Below, piece after piece: positions 14,886 through 34,917 of a stretch of DNA of 39,021 nucleotides (within the stretch, counting starts at the first letter, position 1; the number at the start of each line of letters is the position of its first letter). A program made the translations under genes and the position numbers. Under the pieces are notes generated by a model that did not search any database, was not told the origin of the DNA, and worked only from the letters and a program-made list of their open reading frames with translations. The stretch is from Methanosarcina sp. GTDB taxonomy: Archaea > Halobacteriota > Methanosarcinia > Methanosarcinales > Methanosarcinaceae. The stretch is from assembly GCA_013331265.1 (NCBI GenBank), contig DUGS01000159.1:27988-67008 (forward strand). The letters are read 5' to 3'.

Positions 14886-15584
14886 GGTATCCCCAATATA
14901 TTAGTTAAATTAGAATTTCTACAAAGACATTATTCAACTCTTCAATTAAGAAACTATCCAAAACTTCTACAACATGCAATTATTGGCTTTTCGGATAGGC
15001 TCTAAGTGATCAACTTGAAAGTAGACGAGAAAATGGATGACGAGATATCATCCGGAAATTTTTTGAGTTTACATTAGTTTTTTTATAATGTAAGTGTTTA
15101 CAAATAGCAATTTTAAAAGTCAACTATAATATTAATGTTAAACCATTATAAATAATAGGATTTCAGTTCCCAGGCTAAGATATGACATAATAAGACATTT
15201 TCTCCTTGTAAACGAAAAACGTAGCCTGCTTATTGCTTCTATTCAGCTATACTGACTTTATTTTCAGGGCTTTATGATCTTTTTCCAGAAAAATATATAT
15301 CACGAATAATAATTATTAATCCGTGCAATAAACTTTATAATGTAAACCTATATAATATTAGAGAGTATTAGGCAAAAAACGTTTCCGGGGAAAGCAGCCC
15401 CCGGATGAAATTTACGGTGGAATGTCAATACGAATTACATAACTAACCCTATTAGCTCATACGCAGAGGACAGTTTCAAAAGTCTCTCTTTAAGCGGGAT
15501 AAGAGCTGGAAAGCCAGAACTCTTTACCTGGACTGAAAAACTGTTTTCAGCTTTTCTTTTAGCTGTCAGACCAGGGTTTGAGGA

Positions 15585-17525
15585 GTGAATATATTGCTCG
15601 AAGCCTTAATGTATGGTGCAATTGCTACCCTTTTATCCGGAACTGTCCTCCCTCTCCTGTACCGCAGTAAAAACATAAGGAAGACTTCTTTTGGCCTTTC
15701 TCTTCTCTCATCAATCCTGCTTATCGGCTTTGCGGGCATAATTCTCTACACCGGAAAAGAGCCTGTTTTCCCAGTAATAGGATTTCTTCCGGGCCTGGAC
15801 TTTACCCTGAGTGCAGACAGACTTGCAGCCGGGTTTATCCTGTTAATCGCAGTAGTAGTGCCCGGAGTTTCAATATATTCAATAGAATATGTTGAACATG
15901 CTAAGAGCGAAGCCCGGAAAAGCCTTCAGACAGCCCTGACAAATCTGTTTGTTCTTTCCATGCTGATGGTCGTACTTGCAGGCAATATGGTAGTCTTCCT
16001 GATTTTCTGGGAAATAATGTCCATTTCTTCTCTCCTGCTTGTGATGCACGACTATTCTTCAGAGAAGAATAAAAAAGCCGGCTTTTTTTACTTTGTAATG
16101 ACAAATATAAGTACGGCTTTTCTTTTCGTGGGCTTCATAAGCCTCTTCAGACTTACAGGCTCTCCCGATTTCGGGCAGCTTGAATACCCTGCAGCAGACC
16201 TGGCTCTTCCCTTCCTCTTTCTGTTTATTGGCTTTGGGGTTAAGGCAGGACTTGTTCCTTTCCACAAGTGGTTGCCGTATGCTCACCCTGCAGCACCGTC
16301 AAGTGCCTCGGCTCTGATGTCAGGAGTCATGCTTAAGGTTGCAGTTTACGGTTTCCTGCGTTTTCTTCTCTCTGTCTCCGCACCTGAACTCTGGTGGGGA
16401 GTGCTCATCCTTACAGCTGGCACCCTTTCAGCCCTTTTCGGGGTAATCTATGCCCTTAAAGAAAACGACATAAAAAGGCTTCTTGCTTACAGCAGCGTTG
16501 AAAATATAGGGATCATTTTCACGGGAATAGGACTGTATGCCATATTCAAAGTTGAAGGACTGGAATCACTTGCTCTGTTAAGTCTTACAGGGGCCTGCTT
16601 CCACGCCTTTAACCATGCCCTCTTCAAAAGCCTGCTCTTCCTCTGTGCAGGCTCGGTGGTCCATGCTACAGGCACAAGAAAAATCGAAGCCTTTGGAGGG
16701 CTTGTAAAAAAAATGCCTGTAACCTCAGCCCTTTTCATGATAGGCTCGGTTTCCATTGCATCCCTTCCGCCAACAAATGGTTTTGCTGGGGAGCTCCTGC
16801 TCTACCAGGCATTCTTCCAGTCCTTTGCCGTTACAGACCCCCTGATCACCGTATTTCTGATAATTGCCCTCTCAAGCTTTGCCTTAACAGGAGCACTGGC
16901 AGCTGCCCTTTTCGTAAAACTCTTCGGAATAACCTGCCTTGCCATCCCGCGTTCGGAAAAGAGCCGCCTTGCTGAAGAAGTCCAGAAACCCATGCTTATA
17001 GGACCCGCAGTGCCTGCAGCCCTGTGTATATTTGGAGGGCTCTTTTCAAAGCAGCTCCTTTCTCTTGCAGGCCTGGAGATTGAGTTTCCGGACCTGCTTT
17101 TGCTGGGGATTCTTCTCGGATTAATATACACAGCCCTTTTCATGATAATCCGCTCGAAGGAAACAGGACCCGCCAGGATTAGCGAAACATGGGGATGCGG
17201 TATTCCGACTCTTACACCTTATATGGAATACAGCTCTGCAGGCTTTTCCGAACCTCTTGTGATGATCTTCAAAAGCGTTTACAGGACAAAGATTTTGAAC
17301 AGAACTGAGTACTTCGACGACCAGGAAAGCCTCTTTAAGAACGGGAAAGTGGAAATCCGCCTGCTTCGATTCTTTGAAGAATACCTTTATACCCCCCCTG
17401 CCAGGGCGATTGACATTTTTTCAAAATATGTTTCAAAGCTGCAGAACGGAAAACTTGACAGTTATGTCCTTTACGCCTTTCTCGCAGTCATTGTATTAAT
17501 AATAGCAACCGGAGGCTTTATATGA
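15585..17525 (+). CDS. hyfB: HyfB-like (Ehr) antiporter-type membrane subunit, NuoL/MrpA family
   Basis: FWEIMS, KAGLVPFHKWLP.AHPAAPS, AYSSVENIG, NHALFKSLLF, TWGCG. TTG at 15594 after GAGGAG is an alternative start. Confidence 0.88.
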   Translation: MNILLEALMYGAIATLLSGTVLPLLYRSKNIRKTSFGLSLLSSILLIGFAGIILYTGKEPVFPVIGFLPGLDFTLSADRLAAGFILLIAVVVPGVSIYSIEYVEHAKSEARKSLQTALTNLFVLSMLMVVLAGNMVVFLIFWEIMSISSLLLVMHDYSSEKNKKAGFFYFVMTNISTAFLFVGFISLFRLTGSPDFGQLEYPAADLALPFLFLFIGFGVKAGLVPFHKWLPYAHPAAPSSASALMSGVMLKVAVYGFLRFLLSVSAPELWWGVLILTAGTLSALFGVIYALKENDIKRLLAYSSVENIGIIFTGIGLYAIFKVEGLESLALLSLTGACFHAFNHALFKSLLFLCAGSVVHATGTRKIEAFGGLVKKMPVTSALFMIGSVSIASLPPTNGFAGELLLYQAFFQSFAVTDPLITVFLIIALSSFALTGALAAALFVKLFGITCLAIPRSEKSRLAEEVQKPMLIGPAVPAALCIFGGLFSKQLLSLAGLEIEFPDLLLLGILLGLIYTALFMIIRSKETGPARISETWGCGIPTLTPYMEYSSAGFSEPLVMIFKSVYRTKILNRTEYFDDQESLFKNGKVEIRLLRFFEEYLYTPPARAIDIFSKYVSKLQNGKLDSYVLYAFLAVIVLIIATGGFI

Positions 17526-18463
17526 ACACCTCATTCCTGCTCTTTGCCCTCTTAAACCCCCTCTTTGCCCTGCTGGCAGCCCCTCTATACATGTCTCTGA
17601 TCCGGAAGGTGAAGGCATACGCCCAGGGAAGAAAGGGCCCGAGGCTCTTTCAGGTTTATTACGATTTAAAAAAACTCATGAAAAAAGAAGCAGTTTATTC
17701 CCCGACTTCTTCATGGGTTATGCGGTTTACTCCGTACCTGAACCTTTCAACTCTGCTCGTCTGCTCGCTTTTCGTACCCCTGGTCTTTGTCCCAGAACCG
17801 GCTGGGGGGCTCGGGAACATTATTGTCTTCCTGTACCTTCTGGCACTTGAGAGGTTCTTTACCGCCCTTGGCGGACTTGACGCAGGAAGTGCCTTCGGAG
17901 GCATGGGCAGTTCAAGGTCTATGAGCCTTGCGGCTGTGATCGAACCCACAATGGTAATTTCTTTTGCAGCTCTTGCATTTGTCCTGAAAAGCCTGAACCT
18001 GCACCAGATGTTCGCGCTTACCGCAGGCAAGATTCTTCCCATCAGCCCGACACTTGTCCTTGTATCAATCTCTCTCTTCATCATCCTCATAGTGGAGACA
18101 GGAAGGCTGCCTGTGGATAACCCGGCAACTCACCTTGAACTTACTATGATAAACGAGGCAATGATCCTTGAACAGGCAGGAAAGAACCTTGCCCTGCTCG
18201 AACTTGCCCATGCTCTTAAACAATTTCTGCTGATGGGGATATTGATTAACACAATCCTTCCAGTAGGGCTCAGTACTGAGATAGATGCCGGAAAAATTGC
18301 GGTTTCAGCCTTTCTTTTCCTTCTGAAGGCAGGGTTGCTTGCAATAATAATAGGGCTCTTTGAATCAGCCTTTGCAAAGATGAGGCTATTCAGGCTTCCT
18401 GCATTTTATGTCATGGCATTTTTCTTTTCAGCCACTACAATCCTTATAGAGGTGTTTGCATGA
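17522..18463 (+). CDS. hyfC: HyfC/HycD-like (NuoH family) membrane subunit
   Basis: RKVKA..QGRKGP...Q.YYDL.KL, GGMGSSR, ETGRLPVDNPATHLELTM; ATGA overlap with the upstream gene. Confidence 0.9.
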   Translation: MNTSFLLFALLNPLFALLAAPLYMSLIRKVKAYAQGRKGPRLFQVYYDLKKLMKKEAVYSPTSSWVMRFTPYLNLSTLLVCSLFVPLVFVPEPAGGLGNIIVFLYLLALERFFTALGGLDAGSAFGGMGSSRSMSLAAVIEPTMVISFAALAFVLKSLNLHQMFALTAGKILPISPTLVLVSISLFIILIVETGRLPVDNPATHLELTMINEAMILEQAGKNLALLELAHALKQFLLMGILINTILPVGLSTEIDAGKIAVSAFLFLLKAGLLAIIIGLFESAFAKMRLFRLPAFYVMAFFFSATTILIEVFA

Positions 18464-19146
18464 TTGACCCGCTCTTCCTTGAAGGCATAATAAAGATCCT
18501 TTTCGTCTTTGTCCTTATCAGTGCAGGGCTGATCATCTCAACCCGCAACCTGAGTTCAATACTGACCTCATACACAATCCAGTCTTTCCTGCTGGCTGCA
18601 GTCTCATTCCTTCTCTACCTGATAGACGGAAAAAGCCAGCTTCTGCTGCTTGCAGGCCTGACTCTGGGAAGCAAAGTAATCCTGATCCCTTACTTTATTT
18701 CCAGGATAGAAGAGAAAATCAGAATTGGGAGAGATATCCACTTTACATATCTGGAGCCGACGACCTCTCTTATGCTGAGTATAGGCCTTATAATCCTCTC
18801 CTACTCCTCTCTTTCAAAAATTTTCGAAGGACTCCCCCTCTCGAAACTTTTCTTCTTCGGAGCTGTGATAGGGCTTTCCCTTACCCTGATGGGCATGCTT
18901 GTGGTGTTCAGCAGAAAAAGAGTCATAACAAAAGCGCTTGGCTACCTCAGCATGGAAAACGGGGTCCTGATGTTCGGCCTTTTTGTAACCGAGCTTCCGT
19001 TCATTATAGAAGTCCTGATTGTAATCGACCTTATTATTCTGGTCATACTGACCACAATCCTGGCCGTAGGAATGGATTCCAGCATTGAAGAGTACCGGGA
19101 GAAGGTCCGGAAATTGCAGATCTGGACAGGAGGTGAATTCCGGTGA
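18460..19146 (+). CDS. hyfE: HyfE-like membrane subunit
   Basis: Hydrophobic 228 aa; Y.IQS, KVILIP, GYLSMENG, ELPFIIE; position in the operon. Confidence 0.85.
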   Translation: MIDPLFLEGIIKILFVFVLISAGLIISTRNLSSILTSYTIQSFLLAAVSFLLYLIDGKSQLLLLAGLTLGSKVILIPYFISRIEEKIRIGRDIHFTYLEPTTSLMLSIGLIILSYSSLSKIFEGLPLSKLFFFGAVIGLSLTLMGMLVVFSRKRVITKALGYLSMENGVLMFGLFVTELPFIIEVLIVIDLIILVILTTILAVGMDSSIEEYREKVRKLQIWTGGEFR

Positions 19147-20687
19147 TTCGATACTACCTTTTAATAATGGGAATATTTCTGGCATTCGGCCTTATTCCGA
19201 AGTCTCACAGGCTAATGAATGCACTTGCTGCAGGAAACGGCCTGTTGCACCTTGTTGTGAGCTGGGTCGCTCTTTTCATGCTTGATCTGCCAGTTAGGTT
19301 AGGAGAATCGCTCTATATGGACCACCTTAACCTTTACGTGGAACTGATAACCGCACTGGGATTCACTGCTGCAGCCTTCTATGCAAGAGGGTACACTGAC
19401 AGCCTTATGGAAGAAGGAGAGCTTGATCCCAAGAACCTGAAGACCTTTTACCTCGCCTTTAACCTCCTGCTTATTACAGCCACTGTTGCGCTTTTCTCAG
19501 ATAACCTGGCGCTCTTATGGATCTTTGCAGAACTCACAACAGTCTGCGCTGCTATGCTTGTTGCAATCCTCTCTGCAAGGGAGAACATCGATGCCGCTTT
19601 AAAGTACGTCTTTATAGTCTCGGGGTCCATGCTCTTTGCGTTTCTCGGGTTGATTTTCCTGTTCACTCTTTCGGAACAGGCCCTAGGAGAAGGAACCCTC
19701 AACTGGACAGAGCTGTCAGTTCATGTTTCTGAGTTTTCACCTGCCCTCCTCCTTGCAAGCTTTACCTCCGTGTTCATAGGTTTCGGAGCAAAAGCAGGAG
19801 TAGCTCCTTTCCACACATGGCTTCCTGATGCCTATGCAAGGGCACCTTCAGTAAGTGCAATTCTCTCAGGACTGATGCAGAATCTGGGAATTTATGGTAT
19901 AATAAGAATGTACGCCCTGCTTAGAGAAAGCAGTGCAGCCCCGCATGCATCTTCGATCCTGCTTGCTGCAGGGGTTTTCTCAATTGCTCTTGCTTCATTC
20001 AGCATGTTCCAGCAGAGAAACCTGAAGAGGTTAATAGCTTTCTCAAGTGTCGAGCATATGGGCCTTCTCCTTATAGGGATAGGGATAGGGACACGTCTTG
20101 CACTATTCTGGACTCTTTTCTACATGCTTGTTCATGTGCTGATAAAAGAAACCCTGCTGTTTTCCGCAGGTGTCCTGCACAGACAGTACAGGAGCAATAT
20201 GCGTGAAAACATGTGGAATGTCTTTAAACTCCAGCCCAGGGCAGCCTGGAGTTTGATCCTTGGAAGCATTGCAATAGTAGGAATGCCGCCTTTTCCCCTA
20301 TTTCCGGCAAAGTTTTTCATCCTGCTGGAAAGTGCGGCAATTTCCCCTTACCTGACCCTTGCAGTGCTACTCATGCTCATCCTTGCAGCTGCATCCTTTG
20401 CAAACTTCCTCTTTAAAGCTTTCTCAAAAGTGACCGTAGAGGAAGAAAACGAAAAAGACAGGCACATGGCCAGTGCCCATGTAGAGACAGGAAGAGCTGA
20501 ACTGAAAACTCCAACCGGAAAAGCAGATTATGATGAAATCAGGCTTCCGAATCAATATATAGTCAGGAGTGGAATGAGGGTTCCAGCAGTCTTCATGCTG
20601 GCTCTTGCCCTTTCCCTGGGCATTTATTTTCCGGATTCGCTGAGAGACCTGCTTGATGCGATAATTCTTGAACTCGGGTATGTTTAA
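19143..20687 (+). CDS. hyfF: HyfF-like antiporter-type membrane subunit (NuoM/N, MrpD family)
   Basis: WIFAELTT, AALKY, GFGAKAG.APFHTWLPDA, LKRLIAFSSVEHMG, GMPPF. Confidence 0.88.
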   Translation: MIRYYLLIMGIFLAFGLIPKSHRLMNALAAGNGLLHLVVSWVALFMLDLPVRLGESLYMDHLNLYVELITALGFTAAAFYARGYTDSLMEEGELDPKNLKTFYLAFNLLLITATVALFSDNLALLWIFAELTTVCAAMLVAILSARENIDAALKYVFIVSGSMLFAFLGLIFLFTLSEQALGEGTLNWTELSVHVSEFSPALLLASFTSVFIGFGAKAGVAPFHTWLPDAYARAPSVSAILSGLMQNLGIYGIIRMYALLRESSAAPHASSILLAAGVFSIALASFSMFQQRNLKRLIAFSSVEHMGLLLIGIGIGTRLALFWTLFYMLVHVLIKETLLFSAGVLHRQYRSNMRENMWNVFKLQPRAAWSLILGSIAIVGMPPFPLFPAKFFILLESAAISPYLTLAVLLMLILAAASFANFLFKAFSKVTVEEENEKDRHMASAHVETGRAELKTPTGKADYDEIRLPNQYIVRSGMRVPAVFMLALALSLGIYFPDSLRDLLDAIILELGYV

Positions 20688-20699
20688 GGGGCGGTATGT

Positions 20700-22325
20700 A
20701 TGGAAATCAAAATGAATGAGGATATAAAAGAATTGCTTTTAATGGTCACCAGTATTGCACAGGAGAAGCCCGAACTGTTAAATGCCCGTGAAAACGAGAT
20801 ATACCTGAAATTTTCGGAAACCGGGTTTATAGAGGTCTATCCTTCACTTGCAGAAAGGAAGTTCAGCCTTATAGGGCTCTTCTGTGCAGAATCCTTTGAG
20901 AAAAGGGAAGGCTTTACCCTATTTTACGCTTTCAAACAGGAAGGCATGGCACCTGTCCTTATTCTTGTCCGGGAGACAGGAAAGGAAAAAATGACTACTT
21001 CAATTGCAGAAGCCTTTCCATCAGCATCCTGGTTCGAGAGGGAGGTAAGGGACGGCTTCGGGATTGAATTTGACGGGGCATTTGATACGCGAAGGCTTTT
21101 CCTGCACGAGTGTTATCCTGAAGATTTCCATCCTCTGCAAAAAGCTTTCAAAAACGGGCCAATCCGTCAGGCTGAATCTCCGCGTATGGAATACAAATTC
21201 AGGCAGGTCAAAGGGGAAGGTATGTACCAGATCCCTGTAGGGCCTGTGCATGCAGGGATAATTGAGCCCGGGCACTTCAGGTTCAGTGTAATAGGGGAGC
21301 CTATATTCAGCCTGGAAATCCGTCTCTTTTACAAGCACAGAGGAATAGAAAAACTGGCTGAAGGGAAAAGCCCTTCAGAATGTGTTGTTCTTGCCGAAGC
21401 AGTAAGCGGGGACGAGAGCATGGCAAATGCAACAGGGTTCTGCACGGCGGTAGAACAAATCTGCGGAATAAACGTGCCTGAAAGGGCAGAACGCCTGAGG
21501 GCAATAATGCTTGAACTCGAGCGCATTAATTCCCTTTTAGGAGACCTTGGAGGCATGGCTGTGGATGTGGGATTTGCTCTTGTAGCAAGCCCTTTCCACG
21601 TGATGAGAGAAGAGGTGTTCAGGCAGAACGAGAAACTGACAGACTCAAGGTTCCTGCGCGGAATTACCGTTCCTGGAGGGTTGAAAAAAGATATTCCCGA
21701 TTCGGCTCTGAAAGAGCTGCCTCCCTTCCTTGAGAAGTTTACCAGGGATTTTGAATCTGCTTATAACAGGGCAATATCTTCGTCTTCCCTGATCGACAGG
21801 TTTGCAACAACAGGAGTAATAAGAAAAGAACTTGTCTCTCCGCTTAACCTTACAGGTCCTCTTGCAAGGGCTTCAGGCTGTCCTGCCGATATAAGGATTG
21901 ACAGGCCCTATGGAGCCTATAAGGACTTTGCTCCTCAGAATTCTCTAAGGAAAAATGGAGATGTCCTTGCCCGCTACGAGGTAAAAGCCGATGAGGTCCG
22001 TGCATCTATAGCCCTGATCCTGCGCCTCACAGAAAACCTTCCAAAAGGTCCTGTATTTGCTGAGAGTGCTGGATATGCTGGAAATAACTCATCAGGAAAC
22101 ATCTCTGGAGCCACAGGATATTCCCTTGCCCTCGTAGAAGCCCCAAGGGGACAGAGCCTGCACTGGGTTTATCTGAAAAACGGGCTTGTTGACCGCTATA
22201 AAGTAAGGACGGCATCATTCTGCAACTGGCAGGCTATAGAACATGCAGTGCTCGGGAATATTGTTCCTGATTTCCCCTTGATAAACAAGAGCCTTAACCT
22301 CTCATATGCAGGAACCGACCTTTGA
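20700..22325 (+). CDS. hyfG: HyfG/HycE-like (NuoCD-type) large subunit lacking NiFe-binding motifs (EhrL type)
   Basis: WFERE..D.FG, GPVHAGIIEPGHFRF, YKHRGIEK, VEAPRG. EAVSGD stands where RxCGxC is expected, and the C-terminus is NKSLNLSYAGTDL instead of DPCxxC. Confidence 0.9.
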   Translation: MEIKMNEDIKELLLMVTSIAQEKPELLNARENEIYLKFSETGFIEVYPSLAERKFSLIGLFCAESFEKREGFTLFYAFKQEGMAPVLILVRETGKEKMTTSIAEAFPSASWFEREVRDGFGIEFDGAFDTRRLFLHECYPEDFHPLQKAFKNGPIRQAESPRMEYKFRQVKGEGMYQIPVGPVHAGIIEPGHFRFSVIGEPIFSLEIRLFYKHRGIEKLAEGKSPSECVVLAEAVSGDESMANATGFCTAVEQICGINVPERAERLRAIMLELERINSLLGDLGGMAVDVGFALVASPFHVMREEVFRQNEKLTDSRFLRGITVPGGLKKDIPDSALKELPPFLEKFTRDFESAYNRAISSSSLIDRFATTGVIRKELVSPLNLTGPLARASGCPADIRIDRPYGAYKDFAPQNSLRKNGDVLARYEVKADEVRASIALILRLTENLPKGPVFAESAGYAGNNSSGNISGATGYSLALVEAPRGQSLHWVYLKNGLVDRYKVRTASFCNWQAIEHAVLGNIVPDFPLINKSLNLSYAGTDL

Positions 22326-22362
22326 ACTCAGGAAAACTAAAAAAACAAATTGAGGTCTTATT

Positions 22363-22875
22363 ATGGTAAACCCACTATCTTTCTTCCTCCGCCCGAAAGT
22401 TACGGAGACCTTTGAATTTCGGGACGAAGAACTGGAAGCCCTTGGAGCAGAAATCAGAAAGGAAATCCCGAAGATTTTCGGGCACAGCCTTGCCATCCGT
22501 GAACTGGATTCAGGCAGTGACAATTCTACAGAGATTGAAATCTCAAACCTCGGAAACCCTCATTATGATGTGGAGAGGTTCGGGATCTCTTTTGTAGCAT
22601 CCCCGAGGCATGCTGACGTCCTGATGGTTACAGGGGCAGTTACTCTTAACATGGCTGAAGCCGTGAAAAAAACCTATGAAGCTATGCCTCACCCAAAGTA
22701 CGTGATAGCAGTTGGGGACGATGCCTGTGACGGCGGGATCTATAAGGGTTCTTACGCCGTACTCGGAGGAGTTGACAAAATCCTGCCCGTGGATGTAAAA
22801 ATTCCAGGGAACCCGCCCTCTCCGAAAGAAATCTTACAGGGGATTTTTGCCCTTGTGAAAAAAGCCTCTAAGTGA
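22363..22875 (+). CDS. hyfI: HyfI/HycG-like (NuoB-type) small subunit (EhrS type) with Fe-S cysteines substituted
   Basis: YDVERFGISFVASPRHADVLMVTG, PKYVIAVG, PVDVKIPG.PP; the canonical Cys positions read D53, T56, D120 and N150. Confidence 0.88.
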   Translation: MVNPLSFFLRPKVTETFEFRDEELEALGAEIRKEIPKIFGHSLAIRELDSGSDNSTEIEISNLGNPHYDVERFGISFVASPRHADVLMVTGAVTLNMAEAVKKTYEAMPHPKYVIAVGDDACDGGIYKGSYAVLGGVDKILPVDVKIPGNPPSPKEILQGIFALVKKASK

Positions 22876-22920
22876 ATCCCCTGAGCTAAAGACTCATGGG
22901 TTTTACGCTTCGTCATATAA
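22872..22920. mobile_element. IS200/IS605-type terminal hairpin remnant
   Basis: gtgaatcccctgagctaaagactcatggg shares the gagctaaagactc hairpin core with the element end at 38928. Confidence 0.55.
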
Positions 22921-23507
22921 AAGCATCAAAAACATCCGCATCAAAAACATCCAGAAATCGTGGAACTCCTTCTGCTTCGAGCAGAGGAGACTTCTTTTAA
23001 TATTGAGAATTAATCGAAACTTCACTTTTCTCATTTAACCTGACTTTTTATTCCTTCCCAGGAGGAAGAAATAAACTCCAGAACAGCGTAAACTCGGCTG
23101 TGGGACATGTTTTTCTAAAAGAGAAACAGAAGGAAGGGAATTTCGAATAGGGTTGAATTCAGGTGGGTGACGCCTATACCCTGCCTTTCGAAGCAGGGAC
23201 TTTTGATGTAGTGATAACAGGCACAAAAAATAAAAGTTCTTGACAGCACTTTCATGCCAGGGAAACTAGACAAAGAAAAGGGAAACGGGCAGAAAAAGTA
23301 GCTTAACTTTAGAAAGTTAGTGTTTTTTGGAAAAAAATATAAGTAATTAACTAAAAAATAGCGCATGAGTGTTGCACTAAGTCCCAGTTACGATTTTCTC
23401 CTGGGAGAAAGAAAGGACTTTTGCCAATAAACATTACTTCCTAAAAAGAAATGAAGGAGAAATTCTCCGGCATGCTTAAGAAAAACTTCTAGGGGAGATG
23501 GAATAAA

Positions 23508-24293
23508 ATGAAGATATCACTAATTGACCTGGCGTTCCTATCCGAAAAAAGGAAAGACGTATTGCTCCTGCTGGAAGAAGGACCCAAGACAGGCGACGAA
23601 ATAAAAACAGCCCTTAACGTGAATTCGACTTCGATTATGCCTCAGATCAAAAAACTAAAAGAAGGGCGTCTGATAGTGCAGGATGAAAAAAACGCCTACA
23701 GGCTATCGGATATGGGAGAAATAGTTGTTGAGAAGATGGAACCGCTACTGGACACGGTTAGAGTTTTCGAGGAGAACTACGATTACTGGATCAACCATGA
23801 TTTTACCGCAATCCCCGAGCACCTCCTTAACAGGATAGACGAACTCGGAAATTACTTTATGCTTGAAGCCGACCTTAACCGGCTCTTTGAGGTCCCTGAA
23901 GACTTTAAGAAGAATCTTCTTGAGTCAAAAAATATAAAAATATTCCTTTCATACTTCAACCCTCTCTATATTGAGATATATGCCGAGATTATACGAAAAG
24001 AAGCAGAAATGTGTCTTATCCTGACACAGCCGGTCTTTGAAAGGATGAAAAAAGACTATCTGGATGACCTGAAGATGCTCGTAGAGTCAAAGAGTGCGGA
24101 AGTCTATGTCTGTGAGAAAAACGTAACCCTTAAAGATGTTGTAACAGAACGCTTCTGCTCACTTGTACTCTTTGATAAAAAAGGAAAGTTTGACCATCAA
24201 CGGTTAATGAGCTTTGATGAAAGTGCACTTAAATGGTGTGAAGAACTTTTTTCATATTATAAAGATATGTCCAGACGGCTGGAGAAGATATAA
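23508..24293 (+). CDS. Msr-family winged-helix transcriptional regulator (HTH + DUF1724-type domain)
   Basis: FLSEKRKDVLLLLEEGPK...IMPQIKKL...YW..HD..AIP.HLL.RI.ELG...SALKWCEELF.YY, typical of Methanosarcina Msr proteins. Confidence 0.88.
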   Translation: MKISLIDLAFLSEKRKDVLLLLEEGPKTGDEIKTALNVNSTSIMPQIKKLKEGRLIVQDEKNAYRLSDMGEIVVEKMEPLLDTVRVFEENYDYWINHDFTAIPEHLLNRIDELGNYFMLEADLNRLFEVPEDFKKNLLESKNIKIFLSYFNPLYIEIYAEIIRKEAEMCLILTQPVFERMKKDYLDDLKMLVESKSAEVYVCEKNVTLKDVVTERFCSLVLFDKKGKFDHQRLMSFDESALKWCEELFSYYKDMSRRLEKI

Positions 24294-24385
24294 TTGTCCT
24301 CTGAGAACTGGGATTCATAAAATAGAAGCAGTTTCTCTTTGAAACATACGGCTGAAACTGAAGCCAGATAAAAATCGAATCGAGA

Positions 24386-24438
24386 GTCAACTACCCCTCC
24401 CTGACTCCTTCGGCTGTCGAGGAAGGTGTCTCCTGCTT
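24386..24438. mobile_element. IS200/IS605-type terminal palindrome remnant
   Basis: gtcaactacccctccc...gaggaagg, similar to 5825 and 38928. Confidence 0.5.
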
Positions 24439-24874
24439 ATGAAGATGAAAACTGGATTGGGAAAAATCTCGATATAACCCGGATCATTAAGCAGAAAACG
24501 GCCTGGGAGCCCCTACAGAGCTTACAAGTATGGTTATTCGATGGCTTTATGAAGGTCCGAAATGACTGGAATAAGGGCTCTGAATTATTTGACTGGATAG
24601 TAGACACGTTGACCACATGACAAAAATGAAAAAAGGTTAAATCTGGTCAGTGGGACAAATATCTTTTCCAGCTATAGTAGCATATTTTAGTTCACTTTTC
24701 TATATATTCTCGGTTTTGAAGATATTAAAGTTCTTTGGAATGCGAATATTATCTAAAGATGTGAACTTCTAATTCAAAAACAGTATGGATAAATTTTAGA
24801 TAATGTTGCATTTTTTTGGAGAGTTATAAACACAGAATTACAGACTATTCAAGCTGAAATCATTCTTATTTCCT

Positions 24875-25243
24875 TTATTCTCCCAGATATTTGTCGATCA
24901 AAGATCTGAACCTGTGAATATCTATGGGTTTTGAGATATAATCTACGCATCCCATTTCGATAAAGTGCTCTTCGCTTCCTTTCATAGCATGGGCTGTAAC
25001 AGCTATTACGGGAATTTCTGCAGTTGCAGGGTTCTTTTTTATTCTTTCCAGAACCTCAAGCCCGTCCATTTTAGGGAGCTGCATATCGAGGAGAATAATA
25101 TCGAACTTTTTCTCAGCAAGGCGTTCAAGAGCCTTTATCCCGTCCTCTGCTTCGGTTACATGGTGTCCATAAAACTCGAGGAGGTCCAGGATCAATTCCA
25201 TATTCATAGGGTTATCTTCGACAATCAGAATTTCTTTCATCAT
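24875..25243 (-). CDS. Single-domain response regulator (CheY/DivK-like receiver)
   Basis: ILIVEDN, LLDMQLP.MDG, AVTAHA, ISKP; overlaps the 3' end of the kinase gene. Confidence 0.95.
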   Translation of the reverse strand: MMKEILIVEDNPMNMELILDLLEFYGHHVTEAEDGIKALERLAEKKFDIILLDMQLPKMDGLEVLERIKKNPATAEIPVIAVTAHAMKGSEEHFIEMGCVDYISKPIDIHRFRSLIDKYLGE

Positions 25244-28200
25244 CACGCCTCTTCAGCATAGCTAATTGTTTTATCCTATTAATTAATTCTTTTCTTCCGA
25301 AAGTGCCCTTTTTCATAATAGAAATGAGGCTTCCTTTAAGTTCGTCATTTAATTCTTCGATATTTTTCTCAGTAAACTCGGCTGCGGTACACATAATTAA
25401 AGGAATATCTCTTGTCTTTTCATCTGCTCTCATGTGGAAAATAATCTCAAATCCACTGATTTCCGGCATCAGAAGGTCGAGAATGAGGATGTCCGGCCGT
25501 TGCCCGGAAAAGAGTTTGTCCAGACCTTCCTGCCCGCTATAAGCTTTTGCTACCTCAAAGCCTTCGGGCTCAATCATTGAACTCAGCAGTTCCACAGCGT
25601 TCTCATCATCATCAATAATAAGAATTCTTGGCTCTTCAAACTTGAATTTACCTGTGATTTCTCTTAAGGAGTCCAGCAGTTCGACTCTTTTTACGGGTTT
25701 TGTAAAAGAATAAGCTGCCCCAAGAACAACTCCCAGCTCGTTATTATCTGTCACTGAAATAATAAGTACGGGGATGCGAGCTGTCTCAGGGTCACCCTTC
25801 AGCTGTCTCAGGACATCCCAGCCGTTAGTATCAGGAAGAAATATATCGAGCGTAATAACATCAGGCTTCAATTTCTTTACAACATTCAGAACATCTTTTC
25901 CTGTATATAAAGAAGCTGTACTGTATCCGTCTTCCCTGAGCACAACTGAAATCAATTCATTGGAATTCCTGTCGTCATCAACTACAAGGACAAGGCTCTG
26001 GGCCTCAGGAACCGTTTCAGGAAGATAGATCTCAGGAAGAGGGACCTCAGAAAGCTCAGTCTCGTCCAGCAGATCTTTTTCACACTCTTTCACGGAAAAA
26101 GCAGCCGTTTTACTCATTTCGAAATCTATCAGTACTTCTTTAAGGTCTTTTGTTTCGGCGTTTCGAGGTTCAGAAGGTCTGGTGAGGGGAACCGTAAATA
26201 TAAAAGTACTTCCCTTTTCAGGTTCACTTTCAACCCAGATATCTCCCCGATGTAAGTTTACGATTTTCTTCACGAGGGCAAGCCCAAGCCCTGTCCCGCA
26301 GTATTGTTTGGAAGATGACGAATCTATCTGAGTAAAGGGCTGGAAAAGTTTTTTCTGGTCTTCAGGAGAAATACCTATTCCCGTATCCGTAACTGAAAAA
26401 ATAGCTCTGTTTCCACTTTTCTTACAGTGGACAAAGATCCTGCCTCCTTCCGTAGTAAACTTGATCGCATTGCTAACGAGGTTATAAAGGATCTGGATAA
26501 GACGGCTTCTGTCAGCCTGAATATCTCCAAAATACGGATCTAACTTAAAGTCCATTTCAAGAGATTTTGCCTGTGCAAGAGGGAAAAGAGTGGATTTTAC
26601 CTCTTCGAAAACCGAGTTAACGGAAAATTCACTGTAATGGAGCTCCATTTTTCCGGCTTCTACTTTTGAGAGGTCAAGAATATCGTTTATAAGACCCAGC
26701 AGGTGTTTTCCGCTAACAGAGATGTTATTAACATATTTAAGCTGTTTTCCGTTGAGTTCTCCAAAAATTTTTTCGAGCAGGATATCCGAAAAACCGATTA
26801 TAGAGTTCAGAGGCGTCCGCAGTTCATGACTCATATTGGCAAGGAACTCACTCTTTGTACAGTTGGCAGCCTCAGCTTCCAGTTTTGCCTGAAGGAGCTT
26901 TTCTTCTGAGTGTTTGTGTGCTGTAATATCAAGCCCTGTTTGCAGGATTCCTGTTGCTTTTCCATTTTCATCTATTATCAGATTTGCACAGATCATCCAG
27001 ACTTTTCCATCCGGAGTAATTACCTCTCCTGATTCCTCATTTCCGGACTCAAGTGTCTTTTGTGCAAGAGACTTTCCAGAAACAGCATCTGACATAAGGA
27101 AAAACTCATCGTATCTGTGTCCAGTAATGTTTTCAAGCTTAAGACCTGAATGATCCAGAACAGCCCTGTTTGCCCAGATGATTCTCATCTCAAGATCCAT
27201 AAAGATTACAAGCTCGCTGAGAGAGTTTAGAATTACCCTTTTCTCATGTTCCTGGGTTCTAAATTTATTAGAACTTTGATTCAAACGGTCAATCATCCCA
27301 TTTATTCCGTCAGCCAGCCTTGAAAGCTCATCATCCCCTTCTATAATGCAGTATTCTGAGAAGTCTTCGCCCTTTCCAACTTTTTTTACAAAATTGTCAA
27401 TGGCAACAATTCGGGATACAACTTCCCTGTCAAGTAGAAGCTTACAGCATGCTCCAACCATGAGGCCTGAAAACAGAAAGAAAATTACAATATACCTGAG
27501 TGTATTTCTACCTTTTTCGTAGATGCCCCTGTCAGCGTCAGTCCGAACCATGACTGTAGGGTTTCCATGAATGTCTTCATGCACATAATAACCTGCTAAC
27601 CCGCCTCCCTTTTCGAGATTTATAACAGTCCTGTTTCCATTTTCGAAGAAGGTTTGCTGAAGATCATCAGGCACATTATCTGGGCCATAAAACAAAACCG
27701 GGTTACCTGTAATTTTCTGAACGGACTCTACGAAATCAGAATCAAGATTCTTCCCCAGGATTATCGTTCCAATTGTTTCATTAATATCCGAGGTTGCAGA
27801 TACAGGGTGACAGGAAACAATTACAGGTCCGTTATTCAGCAGGAGTATCCCATTCAAAGGATTCATTTTGTCTCTGCAGAGAAGGGCCTCATCATTAATT
27901 TTCGGGTTAATTTCGGAAAGTATTGAGTCTTCGGAAGAATTACCTGCATATTCCGGATCAGAAACCTGGTAATGCATTATCTTTCCGGAACTATTGACAA
28001 AAAAAATAAAGTCACACCCATTTAGAGTAAAAAGATCAGTAAATAAACTCCCGCCAAGGTCCTCTGGATTCTGACTTAACATAAAAGTCCTGACATCTTC
28101 CCTTGAAGAAAGGGCAGAGCTTGTTTCATACAGTTTCATAATCTGAAAATCAATTACTTTATGTACATTTTCCACATCATTTATTGCCTCTTTTTCCTCC

Positions 28201-28310
28201 AGGTCGGAAAAACTTGAGTAAAGGATACTCTGGGACGCAAAAATGATGATCGAAGTAAGAAGAGCAAAAATTATGTAGATAATAACAAAAATTTTCCTAC
28301 TGACATTCAT
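25212..28310 (-). CDS. Membrane hybrid histidine kinase (CHASE4-HAMP-PAS-HisKA-HATPase-REC-REC)
   Basis: Two TM helices around a sensor domain, HAMP DELSRLA..IN.M, H-box FLANMSHELRTPLN, NAIKFT, DTGIGI, GTGLGL, two receivers (TLDIFLP, ILDLLMP). Confidence 0.93.
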   Translation of the reverse strand: MNVSRKIFVIIYIIFALLTSIIIFASQSILYSSFSDLEEKEAINDVENVHKVIDFQIMKLYETSSALSSREDVRTFMLSQNPEDLGGSLFTDLFTLNGCDFIFFVNSSGKIMHYQVSDPEYAGNSSEDSILSEINPKINDEALLCRDKMNPLNGILLLNNGPVIVSCHPVSATSDINETIGTIILGKNLDSDFVESVQKITGNPVLFYGPDNVPDDLQQTFFENGNRTVINLEKGGGLAGYYVHEDIHGNPTVMVRTDADRGIYEKGRNTLRYIVIFFLFSGLMVGACCKLLLDREVVSRIVAIDNFVKKVGKGEDFSEYCIIEGDDELSRLADGINGMIDRLNQSSNKFRTQEHEKRVILNSLSELVIFMDLEMRIIWANRAVLDHSGLKLENITGHRYDEFFLMSDAVSGKSLAQKTLESGNEESGEVITPDGKVWMICANLIIDENGKATGILQTGLDITAHKHSEEKLLQAKLEAEAANCTKSEFLANMSHELRTPLNSIIGFSDILLEKIFGELNGKQLKYVNNISVSGKHLLGLINDILDLSKVEAGKMELHYSEFSVNSVFEEVKSTLFPLAQAKSLEMDFKLDPYFGDIQADRSRLIQILYNLVSNAIKFTTEGGRIFVHCKKSGNRAIFSVTDTGIGISPEDQKKLFQPFTQIDSSSSKQYCGTGLGLALVKKIVNLHRGDIWVESEPEKGSTFIFTVPLTRPSEPRNAETKDLKEVLIDFEMSKTAAFSVKECEKDLLDETELSEVPLPEIYLPETVPEAQSLVLVVDDDRNSNELISVVLREDGYSTASLYTGKDVLNVVKKLKPDVITLDIFLPDTNGWDVLRQLKGDPETARIPVLIISVTDNNELGVVLGAAYSFTKPVKRVELLDSLREITGKFKFEEPRILIIDDDENAVELLSSMIEPEGFEVAKAYSGQEGLDKLFSGQRPDILILDLLMPEISGFEIIFHMRADEKTRDIPLIMCTAAEFTEKNIEELNDELKGSLISIMKKGTFGRKELINRIKQLAMLKRRDDERNSDCRR

Positions 28311-31538: not shown

Positions 31539-32053
31539 CGAACCCCCTTATAGTTCAATGTGACACAAGAATAAGAAACTTAACGTTACGAGTCTCCTTA
31601 ATTCCTGAAAAAACGGCCATAAGAGATCCAGTCAAACGTTACAAGTCATTGAGAAGTAAAAACCTGGAGCCTGAATCTCCTCATAAAAATAATAGAAGTT
31701 AACAAGGTCAAAATTTATTATGTGGTTTATCAAAGAAAAGACTGAAAAAAATTCCTGGCAATTAGTTTTTATAATTTGCTAACTAAAAAAATATCAGTAT
31801 ATTGACTCAATTGAAGGGTTCGAGAATTGTTTTCACTTTGATTATTCTCACTCCTGCTCAGGCAAGGAAATCAGTGATTAAGAACTATCTGTTCCCGTTC
31901 ATCAAAATAAACCATATTTTTAACATGTTTTGAACTCTGGATAATCTAGACCGGAGTTTGAAACATTTTGGATTGAAAAGGTCTATATAATATTGTCAAG
32001 TAGAAAGTAAATTGTAATAAAAATAAATGTACAAGGATAAAAGTAAAAAAGGT

Positions 32054-33082
32054 ATGACCGATATGAGTGAATTCACATTAAAAACAAGACTTTTAGCCGC
32101 CCTGAAAGGCGAGCCTGTTGACAAAGTACCTGTCTGCTCCGTAACCCAGACCGGAATTGTAGAACTCATGGACGAAGTCGGCGCCCCCTGGCCTGAATCC
32201 CACACAAACCCTGAACTGATGGCAAAGCTGGCAATCGCCAACTACGAGCTCAGCGGACTTGAAGCTGTAAGGGTCCCATACTGCCTTACCGTTCTGGTCG
32301 AAGCTATGGGCTGTGAGATCAACATGGGTACCAAGAACAGGCAGCCCTCGGTTACCGGTCACCCCTATCCAAAAAGCCTCGAAGGCGCAGCAGTTCCTGA
32401 AGACCTCCTGCAGAGAGGCAGAATTCCAGCAGTCCTCGAAGCGATCAAGATCGTCAGGGAAAAAGTTGGTCCTGATGTGCCAATCGTTGGCGGTATGGAA
32501 GGCCCTATCACCGTCGCATCCGACCTTGTAAGTGTAAAGTCCTTCATGAAATGGTCCATTAAAAAACTTGACCTTTTCGAACAATCTCTGGACCTTGCAA
32601 CTGAAGCTGCAATCATCTATGCAAATGCATTGGTAGAAGCCGGTGCAGACGTTATTGCCATTGCAGACCCTGTTGGTTCTCCTGACCTCATGAGCCCTGA
32701 CTGCTTCAAGCAGTACCTCCAGCCAAGGCTGCAGAAGTTCTCTTCAAGCGTGAACTCGGTTACAGTCCTGCATATTTGCGGTAATGTAAACCCTATCCTT
32801 GACTACATGGCAGACTGCGGCTTTGAAGGTCTCAGCGTTGAAGAAAAGATCGGCAGCGCAAAGAAGGCAAAGGAAATTCTCGGAAACAGGGCCAGATTCG
32901 TAGGAAACATGTCCAGTCCATTTACCCTGCTGCCCGGACCTGTTGACAAGATCAAAGCCGAAGCCAGGGCATGTCTTGAAGACGGCGTTGATGTACTCGC
33001 TCCAGGCTGTGGAATTGCACCCATGACCCCGGTCGAGAACATAAAAGCCATGGTCGAAGCAAGAAACGAATTCTACGCCTGA
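32054..33082 (+). CDS. mtaA: Methylcobamide:coenzyme M methyltransferase MtaA
   Basis: MSEFTLKTRLLAALKGEPVDKVPVCSVTQTG N-terminus; Zn ligands LHICG and APGCG; UroD fold. Start at 32054 or 32063. Confidence 0.92.
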   Translation: MTDMSEFTLKTRLLAALKGEPVDKVPVCSVTQTGIVELMDEVGAPWPESHTNPELMAKLAIANYELSGLEAVRVPYCLTVLVEAMGCEINMGTKNRQPSVTGHPYPKSLEGAAVPEDLLQRGRIPAVLEAIKIVREKVGPDVPIVGGMEGPITVASDLVSVKSFMKWSIKKLDLFEQSLDLATEAAIIYANALVEAGADVIAIADPVGSPDLMSPDCFKQYLQPRLQKFSSSVNSVTVLHICGNVNPILDYMADCGFEGLSVEEKIGSAKKAKEILGNRARFVGNMSSPFTLLPGPVDKIKAEARACLEDGVDVLAPGCGIAPMTPVENIKAMVEARNEFYA

Positions 33083-33297
33083 GAAGGCATAAATTTTTTT
33101 ATTTTTTTACGGGCAAGTCCGGGTAAAAAATTTCAAGCTCTGGACATCATGCCCGACTCATTTTTTTAACTTTTTGGGGAAGGAGCTTCAGGGACGGGTA
33201 TACCGAAACCAGTGTTCTGATAAACTGTCAGTCCAGAGGCTCAATGTTGAAAGGATTGTTCGAGAAAATCTTAAACTTTTTTGAAGGAGGTTAAGAT

Positions 33298-34917
33298 ATG
33301 AGGACAGGAGTTGCAATTGACCTGGGAACCAGTGGATTCAGGGCCCATAAAATTGACCTTGAGAGCGGCGAGATTAAGAAAACCGTAATTACTCTCCGGA
33401 ACCCTTTACCAGGAGCAAATGTAATGGACCACCTTGACTTTGCAATCCATTACGGGCTTGATAAAGCCCATGGGCTCTCGGCAACAGCGGTAAAAAATAT
33501 CCTTAATGAGCTAGGAGTAAAGCCTGAAGAAATGGAAAAGTTCTCAATCTGCGGAAACCCTATCCAGCTTTCTATCTTTCAGGGAATTCCCATTGAAGAC
33601 CTGGCATACGCAGGAGAGCGTAAGAAACAGAAGTATCACATTGAAGAGCAGAATAGAGATGCCCGGGTCATACCTCTATCCGAAATCGCGGGATTTGAAG
33701 AGTTTAAAAACTGCAAACTGTTTGTGCCCCCGGCAATAAAGCACGAGGTTGGAGCCGACGCACTTGCCCTTATTGTAAAAGCAGGCATGATTGAGAGCAA
33801 CGAGATTGCAATTGCCACCGACTACGGAACAAACGCCGAAATGGCCCTTAAATCAAATGGGATTATCTATACAGGGTCGGCTGCTGCCGGGCCTGCTCTC
33901 GAAGGCCAGGAAATCGAATACGGATCTATTGCTTCTCCGCATACCATCTGTGATGTAGAATTTGAAGGAAATAACCTGCGCTGCTATGTTCTTGACAGAG
34001 ATATGAAAACAGCCAGAGGAGACCTCGTAAACCCAAAGACAGGAGAAGTCGTGGAAAAGGGAGAGATAACTGCAAAAGGCATTACAGGCACTGGGGTTAT
34101 TGCCCTTATCGAAACCGGGATGAGAAACAAATTAATAGCCCTTCCAAAAATTCAGACTCCAGAAGGCATCATCCATCTTCAGGACGGCATCAAGTTCACA
34201 GAAAAAGACCTTATCGCAGCTGGAAGAGCGATAGGCGCGCTCCGGGCAGGCCATATTTCCCTCTGCGCAGCTGCAGGAATTGAGATGGAAGACCTCAAGA
34301 TAGCATACATGTCAGGAGCTGCCGGAACCTACATGGACGCCGCAAAAGCCCATCATGTAGGGATGATCCCTTACAATGCAAGTTATGTTTCACAAATAGG
34401 GAACACCTCTCTTACAGTTGCCCGGGAAATTCTGCTTTCTGAAGATAGGCTGTGGGAACTGCAGAAAATTGCAAAGGAAATCCTGGGCACACATGTGATG
34501 TTTGCAACCTCCGAAGCCTTTAAGGAAGCCTATATGCTTGAACTTGCTTACTGGAACGAGGGTATGGCATTCAAGATGCTTCAGAAGTTCCTGAAAAAGA
34601 AAAAACTGCCCATGATAAGTGAGCCTTCGACTGTCCTGAAAATCGACCGCCAGGTAGAAAGAGACATTCCCGAACTGGGAGAAGAAGGGCTCGACGTGCT
34701 TGAGAAAGTAGGGACCTACCTTACCATGGTCATTGAGGACTGCGTAAGCTGCCAGAAATGCGCAAAGGTATGCCCGAACGGAGCTCTCAGGATGGAAGAC
34801 AACGGGCTTGTCAGAATAAGGACAGACCTCTGTGACGGAGCAAACTGCCAGCGCTGCCTGCATGCCTGCCCTGATGACAGGTTCAAATGGGAAAAACTGA
34901 CTGTTGAAGGGATCTGA
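33298..34917 (+). CDS. Corrinoid protein reductive activase (RamA family, ASKHA ATPase with two [4Fe-4S] motifs)
   Basis: DLGTSG, RNPLPGANVMDHL, DYGTNAE, GSAAAGPA; C-terminal CVSCQKCAKVCP and CDGANCQRCLHACP; adjacent to mtaA. Confidence 0.93.
   Translation: MRTGVAIDLGTSGFRAHKIDLESGEIKKTVITLRNPLPGANVMDHLDFAIHYGLDKAHGLSATAVKNILNELGVKPEEMEKFSICGNPIQLSIFQGIPIEDLAYAGERKKQKYHIEEQNRDARVIPLSEIAGFEEFKNCKLFVPPAIKHEVGADALALIVKAGMIESNEIAIATDYGTNAEMALKSNGIIYTGSAAAGPALEGQEIEYGSIASPHTICDVEFEGNNLRCYVLDRDMKTARGDLVNPKTGEVVEKGEITAKGITGTGVIALIETGMRNKLIALPKIQTPEGIIHLQDGIKFTEKDLIAAGRAIGALRAGHISLCAAAGIEMEDLKIAYMSGAAGTYMDAAKAHHVGMIPYNASYVSQIGNTSLTVAREILLSEDRLWELQKIAKEILGTHVMFATSEAFKEAYMLELAYWNEGMAFKMLQKFLKKKKLPMISEPSTVLKIDRQVERDIPELGEEGLDVLEKVGTYLTMVIEDCVSCQKCAKVCPNGALRMEDNGLVRIRTDLCDGANCQRCLHACPDDRFKWEKLTVEGI

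Follow-up and report, generated by a model that had tools for sequence, protein, structure and literature searches.

Loss of the [4Fe-4S] cluster ligands from the small subunit of an Ehr complex in Methanosarcina

The coupling of soluble-arm chemistry to proton pumping in complex I and the group 4 hydrogenases has long been a puzzle, and every model gives cluster N2 a central place. What could such a machine do once the cysteines that hold the cluster are gone? This question is raised by ehrS, a gene at 22363..22875 on the forward strand of a 39,021-nucleotide stretch of Methanosarcina DNA (the window). A preliminary description had read the gene product as a NuoB-like small subunit in which all four cluster cysteines are replaced by D/T/D/N, turning the pocket into an oxygen-ligand site for a cation or substrate so that the subunit no longer carries electrons.

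The small subunit and its operon

The open reading frame of ehrS is intact and translates into 170 residues. The product matches PF01058 with 98.5 bits (cut-off 27), and its predicted model resembles the NuoB, PSST, MbhJ and HycG chains in the PDB (best E 2.5e-10). By domain and fold EhrS belongs with the NuoB/HycG/MbhJ-like small subunits, but none of their four [4Fe-4S] Cys ligands (0 of 4) is present. Alignment to MbhJ (6cfw_J: 'GSCNGCDIE', 'GACPTGG' and 'PGCPP'), and also to PSST and HycG, places D53, T56, D120 and N150 in the columns of the cluster cysteines. The first motif, D49-S-G-S-D53-N-S-T56-E57 (22507..22533, forward strand as are all features of ehrS), corresponds to the family form D-x-G-S-C-N-G-C-E/D, with D53 kept and position 56 free; the second, G118-D119-D120-A-C122 (22714..22728), to G-A/D/S-C-A-x; and the third, P-G-N150-P-P (22804..22818), to PGCPP. 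Coordinates, codons (GAC at 22519, ACA at 22528, GAT at 22720 and AAC at 22810) and the MbhJ alignment thus agree with the replacement first described. The codons lie two, three, two and two base changes from the nearest Cys codon, at least two each as had been claimed, and the translation confirms C122 (TGT at 22726) as the only remaining cysteine. EhrS has in common with NuoB/PSST (cluster N2), MbhJ (6cfw_J) and HycG (7z0s_G) the fold, the motif spacing and the RFG...ASPRHAD and PGxPP segments; it differs from them in lacking the four ligand cysteines and a ferredoxin partner, and EhrL lacks the NiFe ligands and the L1 arginine. An AlphaFold model of EhrS built on 34 sequences reached a pLDDT of 68.5, with the pocket loops 53-56, 122-126 and 137-143 under 50; its confidence is lowest at the pocket and it is therefore too poor for pocket geometry.

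The gene is the last of a six-gene operon (15585-22875), all on the forward strand, in which the first three junctions overlap by 4 bases each and the last two are gaps of 12 and 37 bases. ehrA (15585..17525) encodes a HyfB/NuoL-like antiporter-type subunit of 646 residues with E143, K220, H227, H234 and E403 kept; ehrB (17522..18463) a NuoH/HyfC-like subunit of 313 residues with E141, E192, D199, E206 and E212 kept; ehrC (18460..19146) a HyfE-like membrane subunit of 228 residues with E166 kept; and ehrD (19143..20687) a HyfF/NuoN-like antiporter-type subunit of 514 residues with E130, K217 and H224 kept. In 58-66 members of the clade described below, conservation is 93-100% for the Glu/Lys/His axis of the two antiporter-type subunits, for the acidic channel residues of EhrB and for EhrC E166. 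EhrL (20700..22325), a NuoC+NuoD/HycE-like large subunit of 541 residues, forms the textbook pair with EhrS. Both of its NiFe motifs are replaced: A234-V-S-G-D-E-S-M-A-N243 (21399..21428) stands in place of R-x-C-G-x-C-x-x-x-H in the former L1 motif, and N-L-S-Y-A-G-T-D-L (22296..22322) in place of D-P-C-Y-S-C-T-D in the former L2 motif, so that AVSGDE and NLSYAGTDL occupy the HycE positions of RVCGIC and DPCYSCTD. Group 4f [NiFe]-hydrogenases have a related operon and subunit set, and their four-Cys large subunits adjoin Ehr in the tree of both subunits; with neither the L1 RxCGxC nor the L2 CxxC motif in EhrL, however, Ehr is not a hydrogenase. The same genome (80% complete) encodes a separate Ech-type small subunit with four Cys on another contig.

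A terminator-like hairpin, a match to the consensus only, lies 94 bases 3' of ehrS (22969..22995, forward strand). An RNA contig of a relative (~92% alike) from two sludge RNA runs of one study spans 15374-22934, which are the operon limits, with depths of 71 and 51 versus ~6 and ~4 in the upstream gap bin; this is weak support for the operon, as contigs cannot prove transcription, start, strand or level. The stretch 3' of ehrS (22876-23260) also contains a 15-base tandem repeat (22923-22952), palindromes at 22969 and 23179 and an element at 23214-23259; many unrelated contigs pile up on these elements, which are probably a dispersed Methanosarcina repeat.

The same six subunits in the same order, with a large subunit lacking the NiFe cysteines, are found in the Ehr complexes (ehrABCDLS) of Geobacter, Methanospirillum and Methanosarcina. 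The published accounts give GSU0739-45 of Geobacter sulfurreducens as an Ehr complex (PMC7894505), name Mhun_1817-1822 of Methanospirillum hungatei ehrABCDLS with ferredoxin reduction assumed (PMC4704411), and report homologues of the latter in M. acetivorans and M. mazei, with large subunits devoid of NiFe Cys (PMC2686161). Other papers describe an Ehr in Desulfotomaculum (PMC3569383), propose an FDH-Ehr electron chain (PMC6349859), report CPR Ehr from large-subunit motifs (PMC7304191), place Ehr phylogenetically close to group 4f while calling its function unknown (PMC10284858), and list Ehr as a non-hydrogenase homologue, the group 4f HydDB entry being putative and of undetermined role (PMC5037454). 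The window operon comprises two antiporter-like subunits and NuoH-, HyfE-, NuoCD- and NuoB-like subunits, its large subunit has no NiFe CxxC motifs, and Methanospirillum loci fall in the same starred clade, in a tree without a Geobacter reference. By the operon and large-subunit criteria, the gene is ehrS and the predicted complex is Ehr.

The Ehr family is already named, and the loss of the small-subunit cluster ligands on top of the known large-subunit loss appears to be new. The published Ehr accounts, in their accessible portions, mention ligand loss in the large subunit only and assume electron transfer, whereas in the window the small subunit is also without ligands and there is no ferredoxin subunit, so that no cofactor would be left. 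We found nothing on the Ehr small subunit in the available parts of PMC4758237 and PMC3144371, no mention of ehr in the M. barkeri hydrogenase-mutant preprint, and no paper on small-subunit ligand loss in our literature search, although the defining papers (Marreiros et al. 2013, Coppi 2005) may mention it. MA4368, which from gene order we infer to be ehrA, is among the transcripts lowered on hdrED repression in PMC11619418. Genome papers draw such operons as ferredoxin-reducing hydrogenases or formate-linked electron chains, an annotation that the present analysis corrects.

Distribution, selection and repeated cluster loss

What had been described as an oddity of a single subunit turned out to mark a broad clade whose Ehr complexes are cofactor-free. 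Not one of the 120 best EhrS homologues (69-94% identity) has Cys at any of the four positions, and no close relative therefore keeps the cluster cysteines; their patterns are DTDN in 101, DADN in 8, DAEN in 5, DPDN in 2 and single variants in four, and the window protein is 94% identical to that of another Methanosarcina locus. A scan of GTDB with a pattern in which positions 49-54 and 57-59 were fixed gave at least 119 loci (~220 estimated), comprising 114 ehrS genes and five chance matches; conservation at these positions was left uncounted because the pattern itself fixed them. The 114 ehrS loci are from Methanomicrobia (60), Bathyarchaeota (17), Chloroflexota (15), Woesearchaeota (4), Thermoplasmatota (3), Moduliflexota (2), Aenigmatarchaeota (1) and unranked genomes (12). 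Methanospirillum loci, two of them labelled M. hungatei, carry the D-x-D-N type. Across these ehrS loci position 120 is D or E and position 150 almost always N, and one locus (L080) has Ile at 122. Position 56 is T in 53 loci and one more, A in 43, P in 11, V in 5 and a gap in 1; because it varies so freely, T56 is ruled out as a ligand, contrary to its original treatment as a fixed residue. D119, passed over in favour of D120 at first, is kept as well as D120: it is present in 83 of 88 cluster-free versus 2 of 38 Cys-bearing sequences of one set. In these alignments, the kept residues of EhrS are D53, D119, D120 and N150.

In 16 genomes from two genera of the family, the median dN/dS of EhrS was 0.075 (range 0.017-0.19; Nei-Gojobori, 109 of 120 pairs usable) and that of Cys-bearing EhrS 0.069 (20 of 21 pairs; seven sequences from other genera of the same family), ratios that are rough because dS is near saturation. 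The four replaced codons vary synonymously only in all 16 genomes. This, together with the 120 homologues, rules out a sequencing error, chance or a private mutation. A decaying subunit or neutral substitutions would be compatible with an operon that is dispensable at the genus level, being found in 31 of 42 genus genomes and not found in 11, several of which are closed. However, a dN/dS as low as that of the Cys-bearing relatives, the purely synonymous variation at the four codons and one conserved pattern over several phyla and both domains make decay scarcely credible, as the intact reading frame, the preserved flanking motifs and the codon distances had already led the preliminary description to argue.

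To follow the trait, quick, unrooted trees were built with the trait columns removed. Mapping of the aligned homologues placed the D-x-D-N type in a single clade spanning methanogens, Bathyarchaeia, Dehalococcoidia and DPANN archaea; its support was 100 in the tree of both subunits (65 rows, 481 columns) and 98 in the tree of the small subunit only (126 rows). The cluster-free state required 5 changes on the former, at least 3 of them forced by starred branches, and 12 on the latter, at least 4 of them so forced. On this mapping, Ehr small subunits have lost the cluster independently at least three times. Given these repeated losses within the family, the function of Ehr probably never required the cluster.

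We also compared the replacements themselves. Among the 150 best representatives at 50% identity, 88 have all four Cys, and 21 full-length sequences with at most one Cys were taken as cluster-free after truncated or frameshift-looking rows had been left out. In these 21, D or E occupies 39 of 79 replaced positions (49%; background 11%) and D, E, N, S or T 73% of them versus a background of 24%, and only 24% of the replacements are residues one codon step from Cys. At least two acids over positions 53, 56, 119, 120 and 150 are present in 17 of the 21, at differing places: the patterns by lineage are D-x-D-N, S/T/N-E-G-D, D-C-E-D, D-V-D-D and D-D-D-S, and some lineages have no acid at the former Cys positions (S-V-G-N, G-C-G-S). 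The pocket could possibly have been rebuilt as a cation site (Mg2+, Ca2+, Mn2+, Zn2+ or Fe2+) from D53, D119, D120 and N150, perhaps with D49 and E57, where a bound metal would gate the complex or act as a Lewis acid. D53, D119, D/E120 and N/D150 are indeed nearly fixed, a separate, unrelated Chloroflexota lineage converged on D-x-D/E-D, and every replacement costs two to three base changes. Yet position 56 is free, no single geometry recurs across the cluster-free lineages, and D119 is already present in 28 of the 88 Cys-bearing representatives, so we regard a dedicated cation site, the chief alternative, as a tentative reading only. Of the oxygen-ligand site for a cation or substrate proposed at the outset, the D/T/D/N version fails, with position 56 free and the acids moving between lineages, and a putative site of D53, D119, D120 and N150 stands as a candidate.

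Probable loss of the electron wire

No CxxC was found in any of the six operon proteins, and all 64 complete clade operons are free of internal ferredoxin-motif genes. By contrast, 36 of 40 Firmicutes/Chloroflexota operons, picked as best matches, carry a ferredoxin, either as a domain fused to the small subunit or as a gene between those of the large and small subunits. At position 234 of EhrL, all 73 clade members have A, S, T or E, and all 35 Cys-bearing partners of the set have R; we take this L1-motif arginine to be a contact of the proximal/N2 cluster. R234 and ferredoxin loss were considered as universal markers of cluster loss and hold for the window clade only: other cluster-free lineages retain R234, two Cys-bearing operons (L321, L333) are without it, and all 18 listed Cys-bearing metagenome operons have no ferredoxin match. 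Because Cys-bearing operons without ferredoxin exist, a single-cluster, six-gene Ehr is the usual state, with the window clade one step further. The missing NiFe ligands, the missing ferredoxin subunit and the absence of CxxC back the earlier claim that the subunit no longer carries electrons. EhrS is very probably without a cluster and the complex without electron transfer, and redox-coupled ion translocation, assumed in print for Ehr, is argued against by sequence for the window clade.

Electrons might still reach an Fe-S or other redox centre held by unusual ligands (C122 plus aspartates, or Cys of EhrA and EhrL), delivered by a separately encoded partner. C122 is kept in 120 of 120 top matches and EhrA C481 and C538 and EhrL C508 in 94-100% of the clade, and in other hydrogenases an aspartate can take the place of one of the cluster cysteines. 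These cysteines are, however, common in Cys-bearing Ehr too (C122 in 36 of 88 representatives, C481 in 24 of 32, C538 in 27 of 32 and C508 in 23 of 35). C122 is therefore an older family trait, and the four residues predate the cluster loss, which disfavours them as compensating ligands. Ile occupies position 122 in L080, 13 of the 21 cluster-free representatives have no Cys there, no donor or acceptor cluster is encoded, and we know of no precedent for a cluster bound by one thiolate or none. The strongest case that a pocket of acids might still conduct electrons is made by the group-4f-like operons L247-L253 (Chloroflexota; genomes G527, G482, G680, G696, G640, G431 and G672), where the two ends of the wire are retained: the large subunit has four NiFe-type Cys, and the small subunit has a ferredoxin domain and D-x-D/E-D at the proximal cluster. 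HypD was found in just one of five genomes of this lineage, genome completeness not being established, which suggests that the large subunit is not a matured hydrogenase; its four-Cys site may bind another metal. Altogether, an unconventional redox centre is very unlikely.

Possible work of a cofactor-free Ehr

We favour, at a probability of roughly 0.55, the reading that acids in cofactor-free Ehr stand in for the anionic cluster and that proton flow through the complex is probably coupled to work of a non-redox kind. With no cofactor there would be no electron wire, and the complex would not be a redox pump. D53, D119, D120 and N150 would fill the empty pocket, replacing the charge of the cluster and its backbone N-H bonds and perhaps holding water, a proton or a loosely bound cation, and the filled pocket would keep EhrS folded as a brace between EhrL and EhrB. 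The working site would then be the His/Glu/Asp/Arg core that EhrL keeps invariant where the NiFe centre used to be, coupled via the acidic channel of EhrB to EhrD and EhrA, and the net job would most likely be pH or inorganic-carbon handling driven by the proton-motive force. H184, E189, H192, H213, D238, E239, R483, D524 and D540 of this polar core are invariant in 73 of 73 clade members, as are S506 and S535, and most of the core residues are common to Cys-bearing Ehr. The stand-in role is favoured over a fixed metal site because the acid positions shift between lineages, although the near-invariance of D53, D119/D120 and N150 within the clade would fit a true metal site equally well.

Proton-translocating subunits of the complex-I type are coupled to non-redox chemistry in the inorganic-carbon pumps DAB/MpsAB and in the cyanobacterial NDH-1 CupA/B complexes that take up CO2. 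By analogy, Ehr may be a converter of CO2 and bicarbonate driven by the proton-motive force, with catalysis either at the former NiFe site or by a carbonic anhydrase that docks onto the complex, a proposal compatible with the stand-in role at the level of the subunit. The invariant polar core of EhrL would suit it. Of 76 clade loci, 15 have a beta-carbonic anhydrase gene no more than 10 kb away, two subfamilies being represented, and in L276, from a separate cluster-free lineage, a carbonic anhydrase gene lies directly 3' of ehrL in an operon behind ATP-synthase epsilon; we presume it to be of the gamma type from a hexapeptide match and characteristic His motifs. On the other hand, all 15 loci are from Methanomicrobiales and hence represent two or three events, and three of them adjoin formate dehydrogenase genes. 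The operon has no carbonic anhydrase gene nearby, either in the window or in the Methanosarcina loci, the two gamma-type genes of the source genome are on other contigs, and a match was obtained in only 1 of 40 cluster-free metagenome loci (two queries; most loci short). Unlike the DAB and NDH-1 Cup systems, the window operon has no carbonic-anhydrase-like subunit beside it, such genes being neighbours in Methanomicrobiales and L276, so that the activity is hypothetical and the likeness a putative one. A converter of this kind is therefore a speculative proposal, and so is its specific form, in which Ehr is a complex-I-shaped, electron-free proton pump that interconverts CO2 and bicarbonate at the vestigial NiFe site. 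Such an electron-free pump would explain why the cluster was repeatedly discarded for carboxylates and would make the Methanosarcina operon the fully stripped, genetically tractable case.

Mrp Na+/H+ antiporters are likewise redox-free and built on NuoL/NuoN-like subunits, and Ehr could be an Mrp-like Na+(K+)/H+ antiporter whose soluble arm is merely a cap or sensor. Its two antiporter-like subunits have intact charged axes, it is cofactor-free, two metagenome loci have a gene for a Na+/H+ exchanger upstream, and four adjoin F-type ATP synthase genes. MrpB, C, E, F and G, which form the Na+ path of Mrp, nevertheless have no homologue in the operon, which instead encodes NuoH-, NuoB- and NuoCD-like subunits, and a cap would not readily account for an invariant core so deep inside EhrL. 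Ehr as a replacement for Mrp was rejected because Ehr is also present in 9 of the 10 genus genomes that have Mrp, and both are missing from 10 of 42; MnhE was not found in the source genome (80% complete). We consider an antiporter of this kind unlikely.

Returning to acids as stand-ins for the cluster, a cofactor-free member that keeps the NuoB, NuoCD, NuoH and antiporter architecture under strong selection implies that this architecture can do something else. In this clade the entire Ehr complex probably translocates protons with no accompanying electron transfer. Homologous operons are reported from M. acetivorans and M. mazei, tractable hosts for which deletion, purification and cryo-EM are standard practice, so the function of Ehr is directly testable. 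Cluster-free EhrS is thus conserved, convergent and open to experiment in model methanogens, a setting in which the function that we infer can be put to the test.

A shared partner gene beside the operon was sought across 76 clade loci, and none was found that would name a substrate; the neighbours are lineage-specific (GNAT, alpha/beta hydrolase, RibD_C, regulators and transposases). In the window, 23508-28310 encodes an Msr-family regulator, a single receiver and a CHASE4 hybrid histidine kinase, the gene order of MA4375-MA4376-MA4377, which have been linked to methyltransferase genes (bioRxiv 10.1101/2021.03.04.434021). Because these three genes lie beside the operon at only 6 of 76 loci, all Methanosarcina-type, and in view of that published link, they do not appear to be tied to Ehr. 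In L040 and L078, ehrS and the regulator are separated by a SAM methyltransferase gene that is absent in the window.

Several other arrangements were observed. L276 (2-8507) carries, on one strand, ATP synthase epsilon, ehrS-A-B-C-D-L with a D-C-D-D small subunit and the gamma-carbonic-anhydrase-like gene; L294, L310 and L319 also adjoin F-type ATP synthase genes. L260 and L261 (two Chloroflexota genomes), L254 and L256 represent a divergent Ehr type with the large-subunit sequence 'YGPVRSGIFETTQF', a D-V-A-T/A small subunit and one ferredoxin motif; two genomes with this type carry a second Ehr-like operon, and several small upstream ORFs have no Pfam match. In L050 (3218-19178, Altiarchaeales) a second ehrB, C, D set, apparently a tandem duplicate, follows the first operon. 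In L156-L162, from other genera of the same family, Ehr is Cys-bearing and is accompanied 3' of ehrS by a separate 2[4Fe-4S] ferredoxin gene and a gene for a universal stress protein; in the tree, this Ehr does not group as sister to the Methanosarcina operon. VTC-domain and DUF4956 genes, a polyphosphate-related module, adjoin the operon in L058, L070 and L071 (two Bathyarchaeia and one Dehalococcoidales). Elsewhere in the window, a MtaA/URO-D-family methyltransferase gene adjoins that of a RACo/RamA-type corrinoid activator with a ferredoxin domain (32027-34917), and 204-2306 on the reverse strand encodes a 700-residue protein in which a SAM methyltransferase domain is joined to an ATP-grasp domain of the D-Ala-D-Ala-ligase type, which is unusual for an archaeon without peptidoglycan.
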